Positions 1,626-12,982 of a stretch of DNA of 33,374 nt are shown here, one piece after another. This DNA comes from Spirochaetaceae bacterium (GTDB lineage: Bacteria > Spirochaetota > Spirochaetia > B11-G9). The stretch is from positions 1 through 33,374 of the forward strand of contig JAUVLL010000001.1 of the NCBI GenBank assembly GCA_030600745.1, written 5' to 3'. The stretch's first letter is position 1. Each line of letters begins with the position of its first letter. The notes under the pieces were generated by a model. The model was not told where the DNA came from and ran no database searches. It saw nothing but the letters and a program-made list of their open reading frames with translations. The position numbers and the translations under genes were made by a program.

Positions 1626-2630
1626 ATGACTGTAACAATAAAGGATATTGCCAGACATTCAGGTGTTTCAGTTTCTACAGTATCCAGGGTTCTAAATAAG
1701 AAGCCTGATGTAAACACAGAGACTGAAGCCAGGGTAAAGAGTGCAATAAAAGAGCTTGGTTACAGTCCCAGCAGTGTTGCCAGGGGGCTTGTGTTAAAAA
1801 AATCCAATGCCATTGGGTTTGTAGTACCGGATATAACAAATCCTAATTTTCCTGAACTTGCAAGGGGAGTTGTCGAGAAAGCCAGGCAGCATGGCTACTC
1901 TGTCATCTTCTTTGATACGAATCATGATAACAAAGTTGAAAAGGAAGCATTAAAACTTCTTAGAAGTAAGCAGGTGGATGGAATTATTGTTTCTTTTTCA
2001 GAGGCTAACCAGGATGAATTTAAAAAATTAAAAGAGGACCAGTTTCCTGCTGTACAGATCTATCGGAAAAGCCCCAAATCAGTGATATCCACAATTGCCA
2101 TAGACAATATTGATTCTGCATACAGAGCAGTAAAGTACTTAATAAGTCTGGGGCATCGTAGAATTGGTCATATTACTACTGGAATATCAACCCTGTCCGG
2201 AGCAGAACGTTTGGAAGGTTATAAAAAAGCTATTGAAGAATCAGGTATTGAGTACAGGGATGAGTGGATTTTTTCAGGCTCTCATTGTGCGGATACAGGG
2301 TATGAAGGAATGAAGATATTATTAAATCAGGAAAATCGTATAACTGCTCTGTTTGCTTCTCATGATCTGATGGCTGTAGGAGCCTATGAGGCTGTTTTTG
2401 AGAAAGGGCTTTCTATACCCGGTGATATTTCAATAATAGGGCATGATAATATAGAAATATCCAGGCTCGTTCATCCAAAGTTAACTACAATCGATACATT
2501 TAAGAATAAACTGGGTCAGGCCGGGGTTGAACTGCTTCTAGAGGAGATTGGAGAAAGCACAAAAGTAAACCGGGAGATAGTTTTTAAGACAGAATTGATT
2601 GTAAGAGATTCAACCGGTAAAATTGGCTGA
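1626..2630 (+). CDS. LacI/GalR-family transcriptional repressor
   Basis: 334 aa. The N-terminal HTH 'TIKDIARHSGVSVSTVSRVLN' is followed by a periplasmic-binding-protein-like sugar-binding core. An AAGGAG SD lies upstream. Confidence 0.92.
   Translation: MTVTIKDIARHSGVSVSTVSRVLNKKPDVNTETEARVKSAIKELGYSPSSVARGLVLKKSNAIGFVVPDITNPNFPELARGVVEKARQHGYSVIFFDTNHDNKVEKEALKLLRSKQVDGIIVSFSEANQDEFKKLKEDQFPAVQIYRKSPKSVISTIAIDNIDSAYRAVKYLISLGHRRIGHITTGISTLSGAERLEGYKKAIEESGIEYRDEWIFSGSHCADTGYEGMKILLNQENRITALFASHDLMAVGAYEAVFEKGLSIPGDISIIGHDNIEISRLVHPKLTTIDTFKNKLGQAGVELLLEEIGESTKVNREIVFKTELIVRDSTGKIG
2595..2623 (+). promoter_or_regulatory. Candidate sigma70-like promoter for the downstream operon (TTGATT-17 nt-TAAAAT), inside the 3' end of the LacI gene
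   Basis: TTGATT at 2595-2600, a 17-nt spacer, then TAAAAT at 2618-2623. The double operator follows about 40 nt downstream. Confidence 0.35.
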
Positions 2631-2663
2631 AGTAATGAATGTAAATTTATTTTTAAATAAACC

Positions 2664-2687
2664 GGTAACGATACCGGTAACGTTACC
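2664..2687. promoter_or_regulatory. Second double operator: GGTAACGATACC followed by the perfect palindrome GGTAACGTTACC
   Basis: The 12-mer at 2664-2675 is identical to the unit at 1559-1570. It is followed directly by the perfect palindrome GGTAACGTTACC (2676-2687), which ends at the ATG at 2688. Confidence 0.65.
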
Positions 2688-3698
2688 ATGGATGGTAAAC
2701 TGGAAGGGAAAATGATTACCAGAATGAAAATTGATGAGAAAACATTTAAGGACAGGGCTGTTGCAACTATGATTGCCCTTGCTGTAGGAGATGCAGCAGG
2801 AGATCTTGGGAGAGATGATGCTGTAAGACAGAAGTATGGAATTGTTAGCAAGTTACTTCCTGAGGGAAAGAGTACCGATGATACCGAATTTACAGCACTC
2901 TCAGCCAGAGCCTTGCTGGACTGCAAAGATGAGTTTACTGCACAGTTTGTTGCAGACACCTGGCGCAGACTTGTTCTTTCCGATGGCGGAGCAAAAGAGA
3001 GGGGGGGGACCCCGTTATACGGAGCCTTATGGAACCTTTCCCAGGGAATAGAACCTCCTTTATCAGGAAAAGATAATACCCTTAATATAGATGATGGTGC
3101 AGCTATGAGGGCTGCTCCCTTTGGTATAGCTGCTGTCGGTAATCCTGAAGAAGCTGCCCGGCTTGCAGGAATTGATGCATCTGTCAGTCACGATCATGAT
3201 GGTATCTGGGCCGCTCAGGCTATTGCAGCCTCAATATCAGTAGCAGTAACCGGCGCTGGAGTCGACGAAGTTGTTGAAGCAGGACGAAAGTTTATCCCCG
3301 ACGACAGCTGGTTGGGGAGAAGAATGGTTCAGGCTATGGATCTGGTTGATTCCATGGATGATCATTATGAACTCTATGACAGGCTCCATACTGATCTGTG
3401 GGCTCCAAGGCATTCGGTCTCTCCGGAAGCAATTCCTCAGATCTATGCTCTTTACCGTATGTCTAAAGGTAACTTTAGAAAAGGTTTTATCCTTGCGGCT
3501 AATTTTGGAAGGGATGCAGACACAGTAACAGCTCTGGTTTTGGCATTATGTGCAGCAGGGGAGGGGCTTTCTGTTATTCCTGATGAATGGGTAGAACAGG
3601 TGCGGCATCCCGCAGGTGTGTGTCTCTCTTTTGCAAAGGATGAGGATATGTACGATTTAGGTGTTCAACTTGCAGCATATGCATTGAACAGGAGTTAA
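2688..3698 (+). CDS. ADP-ribosylglycohydrolase (ARH/DraG-fold) family hydrolase
   Basis: 'AVGDAAGD', 'KSTDDTEF' and the C-terminal 'GRDADTVTA' match the metal-ligand motifs of the ARH fold (PF03747-type). The ATG at 2688 has no SD and abuts the operator. The ATG at 2712, preceded by GGAAGGG, is a plausible alternative start. Confidence 0.85.
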   Translation: MDGKLEGKMITRMKIDEKTFKDRAVATMIALAVGDAAGDLGRDDAVRQKYGIVSKLLPEGKSTDDTEFTALSARALLDCKDEFTAQFVADTWRRLVLSDGGAKERGGTPLYGALWNLSQGIEPPLSGKDNTLNIDDGAAMRAAPFGIAAVGNPEEAARLAGIDASVSHDHDGIWAAQAIAASISVAVTGAGVDEVVEAGRKFIPDDSWLGRRMVQAMDLVDSMDDHYELYDRLHTDLWAPRHSVSPEAIPQIYALYRMSKGNFRKGFILAANFGRDADTVTALVLALCAAGEGLSVIPDEWVEQVRHPAGVCLSFAKDEDMYDLGVQLAAYALNRS

Positions 3699-3734
3699 TA
3701 ATTAAAGGAAATATACAAAAATAAGGGGTGGAAA

Positions 3735-4634
3735 GTGAAAGGAAATATTCAAAAAAGAATAGTAAAAGATAAGCAGATGTATCTATTACTCTTTCCTGTT
3801 ATACTATTCTTTATAATATGGCACTACATACCTATGTGGGGAGCAAGAATTGCATTTCAGGATGTAATGTATATAGGGGCCAATAAATGGGCAGGACTCA
3901 GGCACTTTAAAATGCTTTTTTCTTCCCCTGTATTTTTAAAAGTATTTATGAATACAATTATAATCAGTTCTATGAAAATGTTTCTTATCTTTCCTCTTCC
4001 TATCATTCTGGCCTTTATGCTTAATGAAGTAACCAGCCACGGATTTCGAAAAAGTGTTCAGAGTGTTATTTATCTTCCCCATTTTCTTTCCTGGGTTGTT
4101 ATTGCAGGACTGTTTATATCACTCCTCGCTTCGCCGGATGGCGCAGTGAATAAAGTGCGCATCTTTTTTCATATTAAACCAATAGCATATATGACTTCCA
4201 CTTCGCATATTCGCTGGGTTTTTGTTTTTTCTGAAATCTGGAGGAGTATAGGCTGGGATTCGATACTCTACATAGCTGCAATAAACAGTATTGCGCCGGC
4301 CTTGTACGAAGCGGCAACAATAGACGGTGCTACACCTTTTCAGCAGGCAATGAATATTACATTCCCGGCAATTGTTCCGACAATCGTTACTGTTTTTATT
4401 CTCAATCTCGGATTCTTTATGAATGCCGGTTTTGATCAGGTTTTTAATATGATGAACGATGCAGTTATAAATCATGTTGATATTATAGATACCTATGTAT
4501 ATCGGGTTGGTTTAAAGCAGGGGAATTATTCCCTGGGAACTGCAGCTGGACTTTTTAAGGGTATTATCGGGCTGTTTCTTATTCTGTCAACCGATAAACT
4601 AAGCCGTAAAATTTCCGGTGAGGGGGTTTGGTAA
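3735..4634 (+). CDS. CUT1-family carbohydrate ABC transporter permease (LplB/YtcP-like)
   Basis: 299-aa polytopic membrane protein. The N-terminus 'YLLLFPVILFFIIWHYIPMWGARIAFQD' is typical of LplB-type permeases, and the EAA-like loop 'YEAATIDGATPFQQ' is present. GTG start with an AAGGGGTGG SD. Confidence 0.9.
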   Translation: MKGNIQKRIVKDKQMYLLLFPVILFFIIWHYIPMWGARIAFQDVMYIGANKWAGLRHFKMLFSSPVFLKVFMNTIIISSMKMFLIFPLPIILAFMLNEVTSHGFRKSVQSVIYLPHFLSWVVIAGLFISLLASPDGAVNKVRIFFHIKPIAYMTSTSHIRWVFVFSEIWRSIGWDSILYIAAINSIAPALYEAATIDGATPFQQAMNITFPAIVPTIVTVFILNLGFFMNAGFDQVFNMMNDAVINHVDIIDTYVYRVGLKQGNYSLGTAAGLFKGIIGLFLILSTDKLSRKISGEGVW

Positions 4635-5518
4635 TGAGTGTAAAAAAACATGGAATCGGACATTTTCTTATAATCTTGTTATTATCTATGGGTGCAATTA
4701 TATTAGTTTATCCATTATACAATCAGCTGATTATTTCTCTTACAGGAACAGATTATATATCAAGAGCCAGTGGGACAACTATAATCCCCTATGGGTTCAC
4801 TTTGAGTACATACAAAACTGTTCTTGCCATTCCTAAAGTAGCAAGGGGCGTTTTTAACTCTATTTTCATCACTGCTGTTGGTCTGGTTATAAATATTGTT
4901 TTTACCAGTATGGGGGCTTATGTTCTTACAAAACGGGACCTGGTGGGTAGAAACTTTTTTATAACCTTGATTGTAATTACGATGATTTTTGAAGGCGGAC
5001 TCATTCCAGATTATTTTCTTATGCGTAAGCTGCATCTTCTTAATTCCTATTGGTCGGTTATTCTTTATAAAGCGATTAATCCTTACTATCTTATTATCCT
5101 TATGCGCTTTTTTGATCAGGTGCCATCTTCTCTTATTGAGGCGGCAAGAATTGACGGTCTTAACGAAACAAAGATCCTTTTTAAAATTGTTATCCCGGTA
5201 AGCGTTGCGGGTATTGCAACCGTAAGTTTGTTTTATGGTGTTTTTCACTGGAATGAGTACTTCAGGGCGATGATCTATCTGACTGATGAATTAAAATTCC
5301 CTCTTCAGGTTGTATTGAGGGAGCTTTTAATCTCTGCAGAAAAAGCATCATTTATCGGCAGCATGAATTATCTCAAAGTAACTGCTGCGGCCCAGCTTGA
5401 TATAAAAGCTATTAAAGCAGCTTTAATAATTATTTCCATTGTACCAATTCTTGCATTCTACCCGTTTGTACTTAAATATTTTGTTAAGGGAAGACTGGAG
5501 GGATCGGTTAAAGAATAA
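4634..5518 (+). CDS. CUT1-family carbohydrate ABC transporter permease (LplC-like)
   Basis: Multi-TM protein with the EAA loop 'IEAARIDGLNETKILFKIVIP'. The ATG at 4634 overlaps the upstream TAA (TAATG) and is preceded by a GAGGGGG SD. The track start at 4628 is a TTG. Confidence 0.9.
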   Translation: MSVKKHGIGHFLIILLLSMGAIILVYPLYNQLIISLTGTDYISRASGTTIIPYGFTLSTYKTVLAIPKVARGVFNSIFITAVGLVINIVFTSMGAYVLTKRDLVGRNFFITLIVITMIFEGGLIPDYFLMRKLHLLNSYWSVILYKAINPYYLIILMRFFDQVPSSLIEAARIDGLNETKILFKIVIPVSVAGIATVSLFYGVFHWNEYFRAMIYLTDELKFPLQVVLRELLISAEKASFIGSMNYLKVTAAAQLDIKAIKAALIIISIVPILAFYPFVLKYFVKGRLEGSVKE

Positions 5519-5521
5519 AAA

Positions 5522-5549
5522 ATTGCAGAAAATCTTTTAAATCTGCAAT
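5522..5549 (+). other. Intercistronic stem-loop (8-bp stem ATTGCAGA/TCTGCAAT, 12-nt loop) upstream of the binding-protein gene
   Basis: The inverted repeat was read directly. It has no U-tract, so it is more likely an mRNA-processing or stability element than a terminator. Confidence 0.3.
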
Positions 5550-5576
5550 AGAAACAATGTTTCACAGGAGGATTTT

Positions 5577-6989
5577 ATGAAACGTTTTTTAATTACACTA
5601 CTTATGATGACAATACTTGTATCATTAGTCTTTGTCGGATGTAAGAAGAAAGAAGAGGCCCCCGCTTTATCAACTGAAGTCCCTACTATTCGTATTGTGG
5701 GAAAAGATTTTTCACCTACCGACGATATTAATCTTCAGTTCCTTGAAAAAGTAGCTGCTGGATTTGAAGTGTACTCAGGCCAGAAAGTAAATCTGGAATT
5801 GGTTCAGGTTCCTGATGGCGGATACCAGGAAAAACTGAATCTTATGCTTATGGGTGGTGATATACCAGACATGATATATTTTCAGGGTGGAGATGAAGCT
5901 GTTTCAAAACAGGGTCTTTTAGTTGATTTAAAATCATATGTTGATAATTCAAAAGTAATGCAGAATGTACTTCAGGATTTTAACAAACAGAGAATTGCAA
6001 ATTATCCATACCTTCTCTGGATTGCTCCTCCCCGTGCACGTATAGCTCTTGTCAGAGAAGACTGGTTTGCTGAAGCAGGAGGCAAGGTTCCTGTTACTGT
6101 TGATGACTACTATAATTTTTTTAAGACTATCAAGAACAATCATCCGGATGCATTTGTTATGACCGATACCGGAAATACTACCCGAATGGATTTTACCTTT
6201 GATCATGCTTTTGGTGAGACTGCTACATGGGTTAAACAGGGTGGATCCTATGTTTATAAAAAAGTATCTGATGCAGAAAAAGCAAAATTGGCTTTTTATC
6301 AGAAACTCTATGCAGAAGGTCTTTTTGACAAAGATTATGTAACAACCAAATGGGATACCATGGAAGATAAGCTCTACAATAACAAGGTTGCAATGGCTTT
6401 TGGTACTTCCGGAGTTGTTTGTGATATATACGATACTAAACTGCAGACTAATCAGAATGTTGGTCTTGTGGCTCTTCCTCCTGCAAAGGGTGTTGGTCAG
6501 GGATATTCTGTTTCAACAGCAAAAGAAACAAGAGGCTGGGCAATCAGTGCAACAAGTATGAATCCTGATCTTGTTTTTCAACTGTTGGAATTTATGGCAA
6601 CTGATGAAGGGCAGCTTCTTGATCGTTATGGTGTTGAAGGTGTTCATTATACTGTGGATAATGGTAAATATACAGCTACTGATAAAAAATCAGAATGGTG
6701 GCCCCGAATTAATGAGGTTATGACATATGATGGTCCTATGCCTCTTCTTGGTGTTTTAGGTTTAAAGAGTTGGGACTTCCTCGGTGAATATGTAGTCGGT
6801 GATCCTGACTTTCCTATTCCTGCTGATATGGCTCCAACATGGGATGCTCTGACAAATCTGTATAAAGAATACAATTTTAAGATTATTGCCGGTGAATACT
6901 CTATTGATAAGTTTGATGAATTTGTTAAAGAATGGTATGATCTTGGTGGTGATAAGATTACAGAATATGCACAGGGACAGCTTAAATAA
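5577..6989 (+). CDS. Extracellular solute-binding lipoprotein of the CUT1 transporter (LplA-like)
   Basis: 470 aa. It has a signal peptide with the lipobox 'LVFVGC' and the size and composition typical of LplA-type sugar-binding lipoproteins. An AGGAGG SD is present. Confidence 0.9.
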   Translation: MKRFLITLLMMTILVSLVFVGCKKKEEAPALSTEVPTIRIVGKDFSPTDDINLQFLEKVAAGFEVYSGQKVNLELVQVPDGGYQEKLNLMLMGGDIPDMIYFQGGDEAVSKQGLLVDLKSYVDNSKVMQNVLQDFNKQRIANYPYLLWIAPPRARIALVREDWFAEAGGKVPVTVDDYYNFFKTIKNNHPDAFVMTDTGNTTRMDFTFDHAFGETATWVKQGGSYVYKKVSDAEKAKLAFYQKLYAEGLFDKDYVTTKWDTMEDKLYNNKVAMAFGTSGVVCDIYDTKLQTNQNVGLVALPPAKGVGQGYSVSTAKETRGWAISATSMNPDLVFQLLEFMATDEGQLLDRYGVEGVHYTVDNGKYTATDKKSEWWPRINEVMTYDGPMPLLGVLGLKSWDFLGEYVVGDPDFPIPADMAPTWDALTNLYKEYNFKIIAGEYSIDKFDEFVKEWYDLGGDKITEYAQGQLK

Positions 6990-7000
6990 AACAAATTATT

Positions 7001-7046
7001 GTAGGCCGTTTGTAAGGGCGCAATTAATCGCGCCCCTACAACGGCC
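7001..7046. repeat. GC-rich REP-like imperfect palindrome (GTAGGCCG...CGCCCCTACAACGGCC)
   Basis: GGCCGTTTGTAAGGGCGC / GCGCCCCTACAACGGCC arms surround the loop AATTAATC, with one indel and one mismatch. The minus strand carries the core GTAGGGGCG. This GC-rich island sits in AT-rich intergenic DNA between the SBP and ARH2 genes and has no U-tract. Confidence 0.6.
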
Positions 7047-7079
7047 ATCAAACATTCGCATCCGCGGATAAGGGAAAAA

Positions 7080-9182
7080 ATGAACAAACAGAAATATCTG
7101 GAACAGGTATACTCAGGGCTTCTGGGGATGTGCGCAGGTGTAAGACTTGGCGCCCCTGTGGAACCTACAATATGGACATACGAAAGAATCAAGGCCACCT
7201 ATGGGGATATCCGGGGGTATGTTAAAAACTACAGCAACTTTGCGGCAGATGATGACGTAAACGGGCCTGTATTTTTTATTAGATCTCTTTTGGATTTTAA
7301 ACCTCCTTTAACAGCAGAAAAAGTGGGAAAAACATGGCTTAACTATACCAGAGAGGGGATAGGTTTTTACTGGTGGGGTGGTTATGGCAGGAGTACTGAA
7401 CATACAGCTTATATAAACCTTAAAAATGGTATTCCTGCACCGGATTCCGGCAGTATAAAAGTTAACGGAAAAGCTATTGCAGAGCAGATAGGGGGTCAGA
7501 TTTTTATTGATTCATGGGGATTGGTTTTTCCTGATAATTACAAAAAAGCTGCTGAATATGCAAAGATGGCAGCAAGTGTCGGGCATGACGGTAATGGTAT
7601 CTACGGCGCTGTTTTTGTTGCAGCTTTAATTTCATTGGCATTTACCAGTTCTGATCTTCCATTAATGATAGATAGGGCTTTGGAACTTATTCCATCTGAC
7701 AGTGAATATACACGGGTTGTTAAATCAGTCCGTGATTTTTATTTATCAAATTCAAATACTGGACCGGATGACTGGAGAGCATGCAGGGATTTTCTTACAA
7801 GTGACTTTGGCTATGATAAGTATCCCGGTGTTTGCCACATAATACCCAACTCCGGTGTAATTGCCCTGGCTCTTTACTATGGTAGGGGGGATTTTGCAAG
7901 AACTATTGAGATAGCAACAATGAGCGGATGGGATACGGATTGTAATGCCGGGAACGTGGGTACCATACTTGGTGTTATGGCTGGTCCGGAAGGAATTCCG
8001 GAGCGTTACAGTAGACCAATAAATGACTTCCATGCTGCCAGCAGTATCTCCGGAGCATTAAACATTCTGGATCTGCCTACAGTGTCAAAGGAACTTGCTG
8101 TACTTGGGCTTAAGCAGTTAGAAGATGACATTCCTGACGAATGGGAAAAAGGTACCTTTTCTGATGATATTTACTTTGACTTTACTATTCCCGAAACCAC
8201 CCATGGACTCCGAACTTCCAGTGAGTATCTGACACCTCTGAAAGAAGGGGCTTGCCCCGGGGACGGAGGAAGGGGAAAAGTAACCTTTATACTTGACCGA
8301 ATAAAAGAGAAGGATGAATCAAAAATTTTCTACAAACCCTATTATAAAAGGGAAGACTTCGATGATGAACGATATTCTCCCACATTTACTCCACTCGTTT
8401 ATCCTGGTCAGATAATGCACATTGAAGCAATGGTAGAACGGTTCAGTGGTCGGGATATATGTATTGCACCATACGTTAGAGACTCATCAACAAAAAAAAT
8501 ACTTTTAGGTAAAGAATTTTCTCCTGAATCAGGAAAAGAAGTTATTGTGGATTGGATAATCCCGGATGTACCATTTGCTGTGGATGAAGCAGGTTTACTA
8601 ATAAGAGGAATTGACAGTGAAAAATTTTTAGGAGAACTTTGTATTTATAACTATTCCATATCCGGTAAAAAGAAGTTTCATATAGATTTTGCTGACGAAG
8701 TAAAGGAATTCGGCGGCCTTAGTCGATGTTCACTTACAGGTGGCTCCTGGAGCATAGAAGAGGGACAGCTAAATGTGATTACCAACGAAACCTTCGGACT
8801 CTATACGGGGCCATATTACTGCAGTGATTATACTGTGGAAACTGTTTTAACCCCGGAGTACGGGACAAGTCATCTTGTAATTTTTAGATCAATAGGTGCT
8901 GAAAGAGGTTATTATTTTGGTCTCAATGGAAATAATAAAGTTGCGTTAATAAAGAGGGACCATGAAAATATTGTTGTTGCAGAAACTGATTTTCCATGGA
9001 GTATTGGGAAGGATTATACTCTTAAAGTGGAAGCAGCAGGCAGGATATTCCGCTGCTTTATAGATGGGAAAGAACTTATTAATTTTGAAGATAAAAATCC
9101 GTTTCCGGCAGGAATGGCCGGTCTTGGCAAACTGGAACCTGGCAGGACCCTTTATAGCAGCATTACATTTTCGGAGAATTAA
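7080..9182 (+). CDS. ARH-fold hydrolase fused to a beta-rich middle region and a C-terminal ConA-like/LamG (DUF1080-type) domain
   Basis: The N-terminal ~330 aa show the ARH signature: 'GLLGMCAGVRLGAPVE', 'AADDDVNG', 'MSGWDTDCNAGNVGTILG'. The C-terminal ~160 aa (from about nt 8700) follow the lectin-like jelly-roll pattern ('GGSWSIEEGQL', 'YTVETVL', 'GYYFGL', 'YTLKVEAAGRIFRCFIDGKELINFED', 'GMAGLG'). No signal peptide is evident. Confidence 0.85.
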   Translation: MNKQKYLEQVYSGLLGMCAGVRLGAPVEPTIWTYERIKATYGDIRGYVKNYSNFAADDDVNGPVFFIRSLLDFKPPLTAEKVGKTWLNYTREGIGFYWWGGYGRSTEHTAYINLKNGIPAPDSGSIKVNGKAIAEQIGGQIFIDSWGLVFPDNYKKAAEYAKMAASVGHDGNGIYGAVFVAALISLAFTSSDLPLMIDRALELIPSDSEYTRVVKSVRDFYLSNSNTGPDDWRACRDFLTSDFGYDKYPGVCHIIPNSGVIALALYYGRGDFARTIEIATMSGWDTDCNAGNVGTILGVMAGPEGIPERYSRPINDFHAASSISGALNILDLPTVSKELAVLGLKQLEDDIPDEWEKGTFSDDIYFDFTIPETTHGLRTSSEYLTPLKEGACPGDGGRGKVTFILDRIKEKDESKIFYKPYYKREDFDDERYSPTFTPLVYPGQIMHIEAMVERFSGRDICIAPYVRDSSTKKILLGKEFSPESGKEVIVDWIIPDVPFAVDEAGLLIRGIDSEKFLGELCIYNYSISGKKKFHIDFADEVKEFGGLSRCSLTGGSWSIEEGQLNVITNETFGLYTGPYYCSDYTVETVLTPEYGTSHLVIFRSIGAERGYYFGLNGNNKVALIKRDHENIVVAETDFPWSIGKDYTLKVEAAGRIFRCFIDGKELINFEDKNPFPAGMAGLGKLEPGRTLYSSITFSEN

Positions 9183-10715
9183 ATGTCAAAACTATTTGAA
9201 TATCAAGGGAAAAAACTTCTTGAGGCGGGCGGTTTTAAAATCCCCAGGAGTATGATAATAAAATCTATAAGTGATGCAGAAGAAGTATTTGAAGAAATCG
9301 GATCAGGTGTACTTAAAGCCCAGGTTTTTACAACAGGAAGAGCTGCATTAGGACTTGTTAAATTCCCGGAGACTTTAAAAGATTTACATACTTATATCGG
9401 TGAAATGCTTAGTCAGAGTATTAAAGGTTATAAAATAGAAACCCTTCTTTTTGAGGAAAAACTGGATATTAAACAGGAATATTTTGCAGGAATTATCCTA
9501 TCGACCGGGAAATCTTCTCCTACACTTGTTTTCAGCTCAAAGGGAGGTTCGGGGATAGAAGAGATTGTCTCCAAATATCCTGAATCGGTTTTTTTTCTGG
9601 ATATTAATCCGGATAAAATCCCTCTGCCCTTTGAACTGATTCCTCTTTTAAAAGATACAGGTATTTCCGGTAGGATATTAAATCTTTTATCTTCCAGTCT
9701 TATATCTCTAATTAAGACAGCTATTAAAAATGAGGCAAAAAGTCTGGAGATCAATCCTCTTGTTCTTACTAAAGAGGGAAAGATTATTGCTGCTGACTGT
9801 CATATGACAGTTGATGACTATGCTGTTTTCAGGCATCCCGAATTTGGTATTGAGATAGCACGGGAGCTTGGTCATCCTCCGACTGAACTTGAAAAAATTG
9901 CCTGGGCCGTTGAAAAGGATGATTACAGGGGTACTTTCTATTTTATACAGATGGAGCAGAATTTTAAGAAAGGGGATGGTGTTCTCGGATTTCATGGAGC
10001 AGGAGGGGGCGGCTCGATGATGAGTATGGATGCACTTCAGACTTATGGGTACAAAGTAGCTAATTTTTGCGATACATCAGGAAATCCTCCCGCTTCAAAG
10101 ATATACCGGGCTGCAAAAATTATTCTTTCTCAAAAAAATATTGACGGATACTTTGGATCAGGTTCCGGTGTTGCCAGTCAGGAGCAGTTTCATAGCGCCA
10201 GAGGTATTGTAAAGGCATTGAGAGAAGTAGATCCGGACTTTTCTGTTGTTTTTAGACTGGGTGGAAACAGTGAAGATAAAGCAATAAGGATTTTGGAGGA
10301 TTATACTAAAGACTTAAATTGCAGTGTAAAGTGTTTTGGAAAAGATACTTCTGTAACCGAATGTGCAGGTGAGATGGATCGGATGATGAAAGAGGGAAGA
10401 GAAGAGAGGGGAGAAGATATAACTAATCCTGAACCCCATAAATTTGATTATAGTTTTTATACTGTTACAGGTGGAACTGTAAGTTTCGATTATTCTTTAT
10501 GTAAAACTTGTTTATCGAAGGTGTGTATTAAAGAATGTCAGGGTGGGATACTTAAGGAAGTAAACGGAGTCCCTGTTCTGAATATTACAAAGACCGAAGC
10601 GACATCAGGCAAGTGTACTGAATGTCTTGCCTGTGAGGTAGAGTGTCTGGCTATAGGAAATGGTGGAGGAAAGATTTTTCTTCCCATTGAGGGTCTGGAA
10701 GGAGGTGTTTCATAA
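9183..10715 (+). CDS. SucC/CcsA/AclB-like ATP-grasp subunit of an ADP-forming acyl-CoA (citryl-CoA-type) synthetase, with a C-terminal 2x[4Fe-4S]-ferredoxin-like Cys domain
   Basis: The N-terminus 'MSKLFEYQGKKLLEAGGFKIP' parallels the SucC N-terminus, and 'LEINPLV' is present. The C-terminus carries CKTCLSKVCIKEC and CTECLACEVEC. The start is directly contiguous with the upstream stop (TAAATG). Confidence 0.8.
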   Translation: MSKLFEYQGKKLLEAGGFKIPRSMIIKSISDAEEVFEEIGSGVLKAQVFTTGRAALGLVKFPETLKDLHTYIGEMLSQSIKGYKIETLLFEEKLDIKQEYFAGIILSTGKSSPTLVFSSKGGSGIEEIVSKYPESVFFLDINPDKIPLPFELIPLLKDTGISGRILNLLSSSLISLIKTAIKNEAKSLEINPLVLTKEGKIIAADCHMTVDDYAVFRHPEFGIEIARELGHPPTELEKIAWAVEKDDYRGTFYFIQMEQNFKKGDGVLGFHGAGGGGSMMSMDALQTYGYKVANFCDTSGNPPASKIYRAAKIILSQKNIDGYFGSGSGVASQEQFHSARGIVKALREVDPDFSVVFRLGGNSEDKAIRILEDYTKDLNCSVKCFGKDTSVTECAGEMDRMMKEGREERGEDITNPEPHKFDYSFYTVTGGTVSFDYSLCKTCLSKVCIKECQGGILKEVNGVPVLNITKTEATSGKCTECLACEVECLAIGNGGGKIFLPIEGLEGGVS

Positions 10716-11638
10716 TGAGCATACTCCCTGGCAAATCCGGGAAAGTTATTATACAGGGAATAACAGGAAGAGAGGGCCGGGCCAGAACAAAACTAATGGT
10801 CGATATTGGGACTAATGTTGTTGCCGGTGTTACTCCTGGACAGGGTGGAAGCAGGGGGGTCTGGGGAGTACCTGTTTATGACACTGTTAACGAAGCTGTA
10901 GAAATCCATGGAAACATTGATATAACCGTTGTTTTTGTTCCTGCGCCTCTGGTAAAAAATGCAGTTATTGAATCATTTGCTTCGGGTGTAAAACTTGCTG
11001 TAATTGTTCCGGACAGAGTTCCTGTTTATGATGTAATGGCAATTGCAAGGGCAGCCGGGGAATATGGAGCAAGGTTTACAGGTCCCAATACTCTTGGAGT
11101 TTTATCACCGGGGATAGGTGTCCTCGGTATGATCGGAGGGAATGCTGATAGTGTCAGGAAATGGTTTAAGCCCGGGCCCGTTGGAATTACCTCGAGAAGC
11201 GGAGGTCTTACAACCTCAACGGCCTACTATCTTAGTCAGGCTGGTATTGGTCAAAGTACAATAGTTCATGTTGGCGGAGATTCTATAATCGGTCTTCCCC
11301 ATCCGGAAGTAGTTAAGCTTTTTCAGGACGACCCTGAAACAAAACTAATAGTACTGCTTGGCGAAATTGGCGGTTCTCAGGAGGAGGATGTTGCAGAACT
11401 TATGTCAACTGGCAAAGTTACAAAACCGGTGGTAGCCTATGTGGGCGGAAGGGGAGCAAAAGAGGGTACCCAATTTTCCCATGCAGGTGCTATAATAGAG
11501 GGCAGCCGGGGCACGTATCAGGGTAAAGTAGATAGTCTAAGAGATGCGGGAGCAATAGTTGTTGATGATATTAGTTCTATCCCGGCCGAGGTAAAGAAAA
11601 TTTTAGATAAACTGGGGATTCCTTATGTCAGAGATTAG
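10715..11638 (+). CDS. SucD/CcsB-like CoA-binding alpha subunit of the succinyl-/citryl-CoA synthetase family
   Basis: 'KVIIQGITGREG', 'GVTPGQGG', 'VPVYDTVNEAV', 'GPNTLGV', 'SRSGGLT' and the phosphohistidine loop 'FSHAGAII' are all present. The start overlaps the upstream stop (TAATG) after a GGAAGGAGG SD. Confidence 0.88.
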   Translation: MSILPGKSGKVIIQGITGREGRARTKLMVDIGTNVVAGVTPGQGGSRGVWGVPVYDTVNEAVEIHGNIDITVVFVPAPLVKNAVIESFASGVKLAVIVPDRVPVYDVMAIARAAGEYGARFTGPNTLGVLSPGIGVLGMIGGNADSVRKWFKPGPVGITSRSGGLTTSTAYYLSQAGIGQSTIVHVGGDSIIGLPHPEVVKLFQDDPETKLIVLLGEIGGSQEEDVAELMSTGKVTKPVVAYVGGRGAKEGTQFSHAGAIIEGSRGTYQGKVDSLRDAGAIVVDDISSIPAEVKKILDKLGIPYVRD

Positions 11639-12455
11639 CTTAGATAAAAGGTCGGAAAATAATGGTGCAGTAACATGGGAAACAAAAATAACAGAAATTA
11701 AGAAAGATGAAATACGAATACAGGGATATCGCCTGGATGAGCTTATGGGAAAGCGCAGTTTTGGAGATATGGTATTTTTAATGTTGAAGGGAGAACTTCC
11801 CAGAGACAATGAAGGCAGAATGATGGATATTATGCTGGTTTCCTGTATAGATCATGGAGTAACTCCTCCATCAACCCTGGCTGCTCTGACTTCTGCATCT
11901 ACAGGGGCTCCTTATAATGGTGCTCTTGCAGCAGGTATTTTATCTATCAATGAGCATCATGGCGGAGCAATAGAGAACTCCATGCGAATGCTTATGGAAT
12001 TAAAAGAAATTTTAGATAGTTCCCAGGATTCAGGAAGAGACTTTACTGCTGCAGTAGGTAAACTTTTGGATATATATAAAAATGAGAATCGTAAACTCCC
12101 GGGATTTGGTCATAGAATTCATAAAAATGACCCCAGGACAGGTAAATTACTGGATTTTGCAGATGAATTTGGTCTTTCAGACAGCTGGGTCCGTTTACTG
12201 ACAGGACTTAAGGATGGTATTCAGAAATCTATAGGTAAGGATCTGCCAATAAATGTGGATGGTGCTATTGCGGCACTGCTGCTTGAGTTGGAAATTGCAC
12301 CGGAGCTGGCTAATTCCTTTTTTATAATGGCCAGGGTTCCCGGTCTTGTGGCTCATATTCATGAAGAAAAAACTATTCAGAAACCTATGAGATGTATAGA
12401 TCCGGTTAATCATATCTATACTGGTATTTCTGCCAGGGATATTCCGGAAAAATAG
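11625..12455 (+). CDS. Short citrate-synthase-fold protein, citryl-CoA lyase-like (resembles the ATP-citrate lyase C-terminal domain)
   Basis: 'INEHHGGA', 'GFGHRIHKNDPR' and 'PINVDG' correspond to the His/His/Asp catalytic positions of the citrate synthase family. At 276 aa it matches the short Ccl-type form rather than a full-length citrate synthase. It overlaps the SucD-like gene by 14 nt. Confidence 0.8.
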   Translation: MSEISLDKRSENNGAVTWETKITEIKKDEIRIQGYRLDELMGKRSFGDMVFLMLKGELPRDNEGRMMDIMLVSCIDHGVTPPSTLAALTSASTGAPYNGALAAGILSINEHHGGAIENSMRMLMELKEILDSSQDSGRDFTAAVGKLLDIYKNENRKLPGFGHRIHKNDPRTGKLLDFADEFGLSDSWVRLLTGLKDGIQKSIGKDLPINVDGAIAALLLELEIAPELANSFFIMARVPGLVAHIHEEKTIQKPMRCIDPVNHIYTGISARDIPEK

Positions 12456-12643
12456 CGGCAGGAGAAACACTTTTAGTTTGATAACATCGCAAATAGCTTT
12501 AATAAGCTGGATATTTTTATTAATAAATTTATATCATATATTTGCTTTCTTCCGTCTGTTCTTTTATTATTGTAAGTATAGGAGGTTGGCAATCCAATTA
12601 TTGAAGTGATGATTAAGAGCTATAATAGGCAGGAGTGTGTGTT

Positions 12644-12982
12644 ATGACAGATATCAGTTTTATGAATCATGAGGAAAGAGTGTTTTTAGCAGGATGTCTG
12701 GAGACTGTTGTTGTTGCTGATAGTAACATTGAAGAAAATGAGCTTGAAAATCTTGATAAAACAGTAGAAGAACTAAATTTTAAGGATTTTGATGATTGCC
12801 TTTCTGAATTTGACAGTACCATTAAAGATAGTGAGAGTTTTTTCGAAAAAGCAGAAATTATTACAAGGCCTGAAGTAAGAGATGCTGTTCTCAAGATTAT
12901 TTACGAATTTCTCAGGTCTAACGGTATCCCTGAAAAATCGGAAGAAGGCCTTTTTGAAAGACTCAGTAAATTATGGGCGTAG
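12644..12982 (+). CDS. Small acidic hypothetical protein, possibly TerB-like
   Basis: ATG at 12644 after an AGGCAGGAG SD (the track start at 12635 is a GTG). 'VVADSNIEENELENL' resembles the TerB-family 'ADG.i...E...L' motif. The functional call is weak. Confidence 0.5.
   Translation: MTDISFMNHEERVFLAGCLETVVVADSNIEENELENLDKTVEELNFKDFDDCLSEFDSTIKDSESFFEKAEIITRPEVRDAVLKIIYEFLRSNGIPEKSEEGLFERLSKLWA

Follow-up and report, generated by a model that had tools for sequence, protein, structure and literature searches.

The stretch of DNA analysed here (hereafter the window) covers 33,374 nucleotides (nt) of contig JAUVLL010000001.1 from a Spirochaetaceae bacterium (assembly GCA_030600745.1, positions 1 to 33,374 of the forward strand), and the gene under study, at 9183..10715 on the + strand, encodes the SucC-like large (beta) subunit of a CoA ligase with a ferredoxin-like domain at its C-terminus. 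The 510-amino-acid (aa) open reading frame (ORF), whose product is identical to the protein of record P0001, was divided into three parts. A SucC/CcsA-like catalytic core with ATP-grasp and acid/CoA-ligase domains (residues 1-396; 9183..10370, + strand) was delimited by alignment to the beta subunit of succinyl-CoA synthetase (SCS-beta) and to CcsA. It is followed by a linker (residues 397-422; 10371..10448, + strand) that differs in length and sequence among homologues, with inserts reaching ~40 residues in some members of a 24-sequence alignment. The third part is a predicted ferredoxin-fold domain (residues 423-505; 10449..10697, + strand), which runs from a conserved Y-x-F-x-T-x-T-G strand to an L-P-I-x-G-L tail and was recognised from the profile matches, the weak Fer4_9 and Fer4_7 matches and the structure model described below.

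Eight of the 13 cysteines (Cys) of the large subunit are packed into 49 residues; when 13 Cys were placed at random 200,000 times, only 50 of the trials reached this density. They form two motifs which were read directly from the DNA. Motif I, C440-x2-C443-x4-C448-x3-C452 (10500..10538, + strand), is encoded by bases 10500-10538 as TGT AAA ACT TGT TTA TCG AAG GTG TGT ATT AAA GAA TGT and translates to CKTCLSKVCIKEC, and motif II, C478-x2-C481-x2-C484-x3-C488 (10614..10646, + strand), is given by bases 10614-10646 as CTECLACEVEC. The spacer from C452 to C478 is exactly 25 residues, and the interval 10500-10646 is bounded by the codons of C440 and C488, both included in full. When the window was translated in all six frames, the combined two-motif pattern turned up a single time. 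The preliminary description of this DNA, which had placed a double Cys-cluster extension of the large subunit at 10500-10646, was thus borne out, with both motifs in one 510-aa ORF. Its further statement that the spacing is that of a 2x[4Fe-4S] ferredoxin held for motif II, which is canonical, but motif I reads C-x2-C-x4-C-x3-C and not the classical C-x2-C-x2-C-x3-C.

The x4 spacing is also found in Azotobacter-type 7Fe ferredoxins, in which the second Cys is a non-ligand, and the spacer of motif I is therefore compatible both with 2x[4Fe-4S] and with [3Fe-4S]+[4Fe-4S]. The tail as a whole fits the published signature range of dicluster ferredoxins, CX2-7CX2-4CX2-3CX14-42CX1-2CX2-8CX3C, and C-x2-C-x4-C-x3-C is itself listed among the 2[4Fe-4S] signature subtypes (PMC11430716). 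Both motifs, with all eight Cys, were invariant in alignment A1 (24 sequences at 52-82% identity) and in A3, and the eight Cys were kept in 205 of 208 fused homologues with a complete domain. A ninth Cys, C394 (10362-10364), sits at the core's end, directly ahead of the linker; it was invariant in the 24-sequence alignment of the fused clade and missing from both split-type sucC-like proteins compared.

The core matched Thermus aquaticus SCS-beta (3ufx_B) with an E-value of 4.5e-52 (residues 4-395, 180 bits) and Hydrogenobacter thermophilus CcsA (6hxq_B) with an E-value of 6e-38 (residues 4-395, 134 bits), and the same SCS-beta and CcsA chains were the top Foldseek matches of the full-length structure model. 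Residues 3-194 matched ATP-grasp_2 (E 1e-34), and residues 272-394 gave a weak match to Citrate_bind; a canonical SucC is expected to match Ligase_CoA rather than Citrate_bind. The E189-I-N-P stretch was invariant in the 24-sequence alignment, and E189 presumably corresponds to Glu197-beta, the catalytic residue in SCS of E. coli. Scores against the SucC models stayed well under their cutoffs (TIGR01016, 214.5 bits against 375.55; NF001913, 211.4 against 370). None of the aligned Protein Data Bank (PDB) chains of SucC, CcsA and ATP-citrate lyase (ACL) extends past residue 396. The earlier remark that canonical SucC, CcsA and AclB have no Fe-S (iron-sulfur) domain is consistent with this, as no solved chain covers the residues beyond 396. 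The suggestion that the protein is neither a standard SucC nor a standard CcsA was also upheld, by the TIGR01016 score (214 against 375 bits) and by a citrate pocket of CcsA of which two of eight residues are kept.

Ferredoxin homology and predicted fold

In the preliminary description a search with Fer4-type hidden Markov models was proposed as a check; formally it failed, Fer4_9 reaching 14-18 bits where the cutoff is 27, and with Fer4 scores under the Pfam cutoff the domain is therefore invisible to routine annotation. Weak Fer4_9 and Fer4_7 matches were nevertheless present in 19 of 21 family members, and an NCBIfam scan returned a marginal, sub-threshold match to TIGR02179 (PorD_KorD). 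More was obtained with profiles of the family. The narrow family profile A2 matched 8ys5_D, the delta subunit of OGOR, with an E-value of 0.025 and with both motifs aligned. When profile A3, which comprises 37 fused and standalone sequences, was compared with the PDB, 69 sequences were found at E<=1, of which the best 60 were all dicluster Fe-S proteins. The strongest matches were the polyferredoxin FwdF (5.4e-6), OGOR delta (5.2e-5) and NrfC (6.7e-5), followed by the Fe-S subunit of an aldehyde oxidoreductase (3.7e-4), HycB4 (5e-4) and then Sulfolobus ferredoxin and PsaC; in the alignments to FwdF both Cys motifs were paired. A search of 1.84 billion representative sequences with the domain profile returned 146 proteins and no generic ferredoxins, and judged from these sequences the domain family is distinct from generic ferredoxins.

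The AlphaFold2 (AF2) model obtained with the full-length alignment had a mean predicted local distance difference test score (pLDDT) of 87.8. Residues 420-500 scored 89-94 and were arranged as strand-strand-helix-helix-strand-strand-helix-helix-strand, a ferredoxin-like order, and the linker scored 65-73 between flanks of ~90. The isolated tail, modelled with alignment A2, reached a pLDDT of 53, and this poor score, set against the high one in the full-length context, suggests that the domain packs on the core. Foldseek listed only SCS, citryl-CoA synthetase (CCS) and ACL chains for the full-length model, all of them matches of the core. The structure prediction that the preliminary description had proposed for residues 430-510 accordingly gave a divided picture: the order is ferredoxin-like with pLDDT 89-94 in the full-length model, but the isolated tail stayed at 53 and its Foldseek matches were non-significant. 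Taken together with the profile matches, the model suggests that the last ~85 residues most likely adopt a diverged (beta-alpha-beta)2 fold of the bacterial-ferredoxin type, which would bind two cubane Fe-S clusters.

Distribution, variants and gene neighbourhood

The SucC core and the Cys-rich tail formed one uninterrupted ORF in 84 of 86 loci, the remaining two ending at contig ends. Among the 120 best homologues listed, whose names come from many phyla, the length was ~505-555 aa (607 aa in one case) and the coverage 99-100%, one fragment excepted; a precomputed Fer4 domain was recorded on none of these 120. With one peptide pattern, at least 403 species genomes out of 185,579 scanned were found to encode the domain; with regard to the survey proposed in the preliminary description, the family is widespread in uncultured bacteria. 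The taxon counts, taken from record titles, refer to the 80 of 403 genome matches that were fetched, all of which were metagenome-assembled genomes (MAGs): 29 Anaerolineae/Chloroflexota, 10 Calditrichia, 8 Zixibacteria, 5 Spirochaetota, 4 Acidobacteriota, 3 Ignavibacteria, 2 each of KSB1, Marinimicrobia and Oligoflexia, 1 each of Coatesbacteria, Cloacimonadota, Sumerlaeota and Pseudomonadota, and 11 unclassified. The nearest locus (L006) belongs to a Spirochaetaceae MAG and is 97% identical over the domain.

The preliminary description had allowed for an artefact of sequencing or assembly by which two genes were joined, which here would be a sucC gene and an adjacent ferredoxin gene. A separate ferredoxin-like gene, in a split arrangement, does exist in other lineages. 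However, of 86 independent loci, which come from numerous assemblies and phyla, 84 show the same uninterrupted ORF, the other two being cut by contig ends, and the best 120 homologues, bar one fragment, share the length of ~510 aa at 99-100% coverage. The artefact was hence rejected, and its probability is practically negligible. Far from being an occasional add-on, the ferredoxin module characterises a distinct clade of ADP-forming SucCD-type CoA ligases as their third component.

Natural variants of the eight Cys were informative with respect to the clusters. Six proteins (P0154, P0155, P0161, P0167, P0170 and P0187) had lost exactly the first three Cys of motif I and the fourth of motif II (I-1, I-2, I-3 and II-4) while keeping I-4 and II-1 to II-3, and most other variants that retain most Cys lacked one member of I-4, II-1 or II-2. 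These loss patterns are, at the level of sequence, the two crossed ligand sets expected of a ferredoxin: C440, C443 and C448 together with C488 would ligate one cluster (set A), and C478, C481 and C484 together with C452 the other (set B). Loss was much more extensive among the relatives of P0252, 117 of 118 of which still had the domain but no more than 2-4 of its eight Cys (2-3 in most patterns), as in the change of GKC-TEC-LAC-EVEC to GKD-SEL-IAC-EIEC. This sister clade bears the names of Planctomycetota, Myxococcales, Chthoniobacterales and Phycisphaerales MAGs, and it retains the domain without the ligands; the fold therefore appears to serve a function that is independent of clusters. 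In two long contigs of this Cys-depleted kind (L092 and L093) the gene was frameshifted and lay away from sucD and ccl.

Such variants also bear on the explanation that there is no Fe-S cluster in vivo, the Cys binding Zn or nothing and the domain being a relic ferredoxin fold kept as a small structural unit. Some D subunits of archaeal RNA polymerase, for instance, contain a ferredoxin-like domain that has lost its clusters, and archaeal RNA polymerase D chains were the top, although non-significant, Foldseek matches of the isolated tail; the Pfam scores are sub-threshold, and the Cys-depleted relatives show that the fold survives without ligands. Eight invariant Cys with exact ferredoxin spacing, lost in crossed sets of four ligands, are nevertheless what a pair of cubanes predicts, whereas two Zn sites made from sequence-local motifs would not predict crossed loss. 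We consider the absence of clusters very improbable.

The split form was found as small domain-only proteins among the 146 representatives, and at least 287 standalone clusters of 94-126 aa were counted (98-109 aa in the loci inspected); some of these proteins carry the JGI labels 'ferredoxin', 'PreA subunit' or 'Fe-S-cluster-containing dehydrogenase component'. In all four neighbourhoods inspected, the standalone gene was situated between a sucC-like gene of 420-425 aa and a sucD-like gene of 298-305 aa, and in three of them its start overlapped the sucC-like stop. The domain gene lodged at this position therefore points to an integral third component of the ligase, which in the clade of the window is fused to the beta subunit. 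The split sucC-like proteins were 39-41% identical to the core of the window protein, for which Foldseek gave an identity of 32% with Thermus SCS-beta. Their surroundings varied: an HpcH-type lyase and two methylaspartate ammonia-lyases accompanied the split ligase in L086-88, a divergent (head-to-head) four-subunit 2-oxoacid:ferredoxin oxidoreductase (OFOR) stood beside it in L089-90, and an HMGL-type lyase, aconitase-family subunits and PrpF were found in L094 and L095, with PrpD in the latter too. Their gene content gives the split systems the appearance of CoA-ligase/lyase pathways for di- or tricarboxylates that have yet to be characterised. In most loci examined, fused or split, the module-bearing ligase is accompanied by a lyase that cleaves a C-C bond of a CoA ester, of the citryl-CoA lyase (CCL) type here and of the HpcH or HMGL type in split systems.

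In the window, the stop codon of the large subunit overlaps the start of a gene for a SucD-like small (alpha) subunit by 1 nt (TAATG). The 307-aa small subunit (10715..11638, + strand) has CoA_binding and Ligase_CoA domains, scores 280 bits with TIGR01019 (cutoff 353) and contains an S-H-A-G-A stretch, which we take to be the phosphohistidine motif. Overlapping it by 14 nt is the gene of a CCL-like protein of 276 aa with a short citrate-synthase fold (11625..12455, + strand), which passes NF004869 (243.5 bits, cutoff 212), matches H. thermophilus CCL (6hxp_A) with an E-value of 2.4e-53 and keeps the HGGA, GHR and NVDG motifs. The order of ferredoxin-bearing, SucD-like and CCL-like genes was seen in nearly all of 85 loci, and the ligase was paired with a CCL-like lyase in most of them. 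In an Oligoflexia MAG (L040, 4288-5985) the SucD-like and CCL-like parts stand in one 565-aa ORF, which is either a true fusion or the result of a lost stop codon. After the lyase gene of the window there is an acidic 115-aa ORF (12635-12982), for which only L007, the most closely related locus, has a conserved counterpart (87% identity).

Upstream, a 700-aa gene of the ADP-ribosylglycohydrolase family (7080..9182, + strand; PF03747, E 4.7e-54, residues 13-309 only) ends one base ahead of the ligase start, leaving a gap of 0 nt, and it is probably part of the ligase operon. It lay upstream of the ligase in the spirochaete-clade loci L006-L010 and was directly adjacent in L006, L009 and L010. 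The preceding region of the window (1626-9182) holds a LacI-type regulator, a 336-aa ADP-ribosylglycohydrolase-family gene, two ABC permeases and a solute-binding protein in addition to the 700-aa gene, and several copies of the 700-aa gene were present upstream in a Calditrichia genome (the loci concerned are 1626-9182 of the window, L006-L010 and L085). The gene could be linked to the ligase through substrate supply or through control by ADP-ribosylation.

Other lineages showed a different set. Downstream of the ccl-like gene in L001, L002, L004, L011, L035, L042 and about 20 further loci there is an HDIG protein of ~176 aa, a homoaconitase-family isomerase and an enzyme of the isocitrate dehydrogenase (IDH) family. 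The set was seen in Anaerolineae, Zixibacteria, Ignavibacteria, Acidobacteriota and others, with the isomerase either two-subunit or fused and sometimes with a PrpD-like protein next to it. The best match of the IDH-family neighbour was homoisocitrate dehydrogenase, and the fused isomerase of L002 passed the homoaconitase cutoff of TIGR00139 (755 against 530 bits). A plain aconitase/IDH context was considered as well, but the neighbours score, ambiguously, as members of the homoaconitase and homoisocitrate-dehydrogenase families. The spirochaete clade is without the HDIG, homoaconitase-like and IDH-family genes, and the ADP-ribosylglycohydrolase-family gene precedes the ligase instead.

With regard to the acid substrate, the citrate-binding residues reported for 6HXQ are F270, G296, G297, A327, N328, N329, T330 and R363 (bioRxiv 10.1101/2022.10.25.513756). 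The aligned residues of the window protein are A273, S299, G300, A331, S332, Q333, E334 and L359, of which two of eight are retained, and a plain CCS was consequently rejected. The individual changes (9999-10259, residues 273-359) are F270 to A273, G296 to S299, N328 to S332, N329 to Q333, T330 to E334 and R363 to L359. The replacements, E334 included, are for the most part invariant or nearly so in the family, L359 varying in wider relatives, and the family loop G-S-G-S-G-V-A-S-Q-E-Q was invariant in the 24-sequence alignment. As the changed pocket residues are mostly fixed, the acid may differ from citrate. Judged from the genes, the substrate is probably a citrate-like hydroxy-polycarboxylate: the homoaconitase-like and homoisocitrate-dehydrogenase-like neighbours and the CCL-like lyase make a citrate- or homocitrate-type acid plausible, and the pathway may handle homocitrate instead of citrate. 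By analogy, it could run in an ATP-yielding synthetic direction; ACL of Desulfobacter postgatei reportedly works in this way.

Probable role of the predicted Fe-S module

On balance, and with modest confidence, we favour the reading that the extension is an Fe-S accessory module with two clusters, integral to this ligase clade and primarily structural in role. It would help to assemble or stabilise the beta/alpha complex, possibly together with the lyase; in this spirochaete and other anaerobic lineages the clusters would act as structural elements, and the need for cluster integrity would make the enzyme depend on reducing, iron-replete and anoxic conditions. SucCD-type ligases (SCS, CCS and ACL) are textbook non-redox enzymes. 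No conserved oxidoreductase or redox partner was found among the neighbours in 85 loci, either in Pfam-annotated neighbourhoods or by unbiased clustering of ORFs, and two of the larger clusters of neighbouring ORFs were antisense shadow ORFs in high-GC loci. We infer that a structural or stability-gating role is more likely than electron transfer, because ligation and Claisen cleavage are non-redox, a conserved redox partner is lacking and the domain persists after ligand loss.

Several observations weigh against this reading. Whether the entire protein or just its tail was compared with Pfam, Fer4_9 scored 14.3-18.1 bits against a cutoff of 27, and Fer4_6, Fer4_10, Fer4_7 and Fer4 were also sub-cutoff. 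None of the Foldseek matches of the isolated, low-confidence tail model was significant (best E 0.3), the top ones being Fe-S ferredoxin-like domains. Strict conservation of the eight Cys shows that the clusters matter, and it fits a redox or sensing role as well as a structural one. The closest solved relatives, OFOR delta subunits and polyferredoxins, are electron-transfer modules, and one split locus lies beside a four-subunit OFOR. Finally, the Cys-depleted clade is not a clean comparison, as it may have another function.

The relatives just named are the ground for regarding the domain as an electron-transfer or docking module, which would relay electrons or dock the ligase on a ferredoxin-dependent enzyme such as OFOR and so couple acyl-CoA formation to ATP-conserving thioester cleavage. 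The marginal TIGR02179 PorD_KorD match and the head-to-head arrangement of split locus L089 with the four-subunit OFOR agree with it. Yet neither the ligase nor the lyase nor the conserved neighbours (HDIG, homoaconitase-like and IDH-family) offer a partner redox centre that would need ferredoxin; no family of oxidoreductases is conserved across the 85 loci, OFOR adjacency was met in one neighbourhood of ~90, and the domain persists in Cys-depleted and single-cluster variants. We strongly doubt this explanation.

A redox or O2 sensor, which like electron transfer had been put forward in the preliminary description and in which the oxidation state or oxidative breakdown of the clusters would switch the ligase, and with it the pathway, on and off as in other Fe-S-regulated non-redox enzymes, appears rather unlikely. 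The chemistry of the reaction needs no electrons, and strong purifying selection acts on all eight Cys of the fused clade, which was found only in MAGs, mostly of anaerobic-type groups; ligand loss in relatives from Planctomycetota, Verrucomicrobiota and Myxococcota would fit the relaxation of a function linked to anoxia. These lifestyles are, however, read from taxon names alone, neither a regulatory partner nor a sensor-type output domain was seen, two clusters exceed what a sensor needs, and the sequence data do not separate a sensor from a purely structural cluster. The bolder view, which we hold to be distinctly unlikely, is that of an unrecognised, widespread class of three-component (beta, ferredoxin, alpha) ADP-forming ligases, always associated with a CoA-ester lyase, whose clusters are functional beyond any structural part, either gating, by redox or O2 state, an ATP-conserving synthesis or cleavage of acids of the citrate or homocitrate type or docking the ligase onto OFORs in place of the delta subunit. 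If gating or docking were true, it would mean a new coupling of substrate-level phosphorylation to redox state, and in uncultured anaerobes the conservation of thioester energy would be linked directly with ferredoxin metabolism.

Nothing relevant was found in the literature searched on a SucC-ferredoxin fusion, on an Fe-S-containing SCS or CCS, or on CCS/CCL in these phyla, and no solved structure or above-threshold Pfam assignment of a SucC-family protein with an Fe-S domain was present among the PDB chains and homologues searched. A conserved Fe-S module attached to, or encoded inside, the ligases of hundreds of uncultured species is an unannotated layer of central carbon metabolism. These genes are currently annotated as 'succinyl-CoA synthetase beta' or 'acetate-CoA ligase family', and both labels are probably wrong; MAG-based reconstructions of the TCA (tricarboxylic acid) cycle or the reductive TCA cycle which count them as SCS or CCS may err. 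The fused, split and Cys-depleted forms, with three types of lyase partner, provide natural variants for dissecting the role of the module.

Comparison with known systems

Compared with SucC as defined by TIGR01016, the window protein shares the ATP-grasp and CoA-ligase fold, the E-I-N-P motif and an alpha partner with S-H-A-G-A. It differs in its sub-cutoff score, in its Citrate_bind second domain, in the G-S-G-S-G-V-A-S-Q-E-Q loop and in the additional ~115 residues of linker and Fe-S domain. The Fe-S part resembles OFOR delta subunits (8YS5 chain D) and FwdF in its two four-Cys motifs 25 residues apart, in profile homology, in the predicted order of strands and helices and in the inferred crossed ligands. 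Unlike in these proteins, motif I has an x4 spacer and is without C-P, the flanks (the Y-x-F-x-T-x-T-G strand, a G-N-G-G-G loop and the L-P-I-x-G-L tail) are specific to the family, and the domain is joined to a non-redox enzyme and stays below the Pfam thresholds.

ACL (AclB/AclA, ACLY) offers a likeness in that a SucC-like module with a Citrate_bind-type domain works with a CCL module, and the single SucD and CCL ORF of L040 recalls AclA. The similarity to ACL, though, is limited to E-values of 1e-7 to 1e-24, no solved ACL has an Fe-S domain, and the genes of the window are separate. A close parallel in organisation is CcsA/CcsB and Ccl of H. thermophilus (6HXQ, 6HXP), in which a SucC-like subunit, a SucD-like subunit and a short lyase of the citrate-synthase fold are likewise encoded by three genes. 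CcsA, however, has 429 aa and is without the Cys-rich tail; in the pocket its ANNT is replaced by ASQE, F270 by A and R363 by L in the window protein, which as a whole is nearer to SCS-beta of Thermus (180 bits, against 134 bits for CcsA). Host lineages differ too, CCS/CCL belonging to Aquificae, whereas the family of the window is carried by MAG lineages of heterotroph type.

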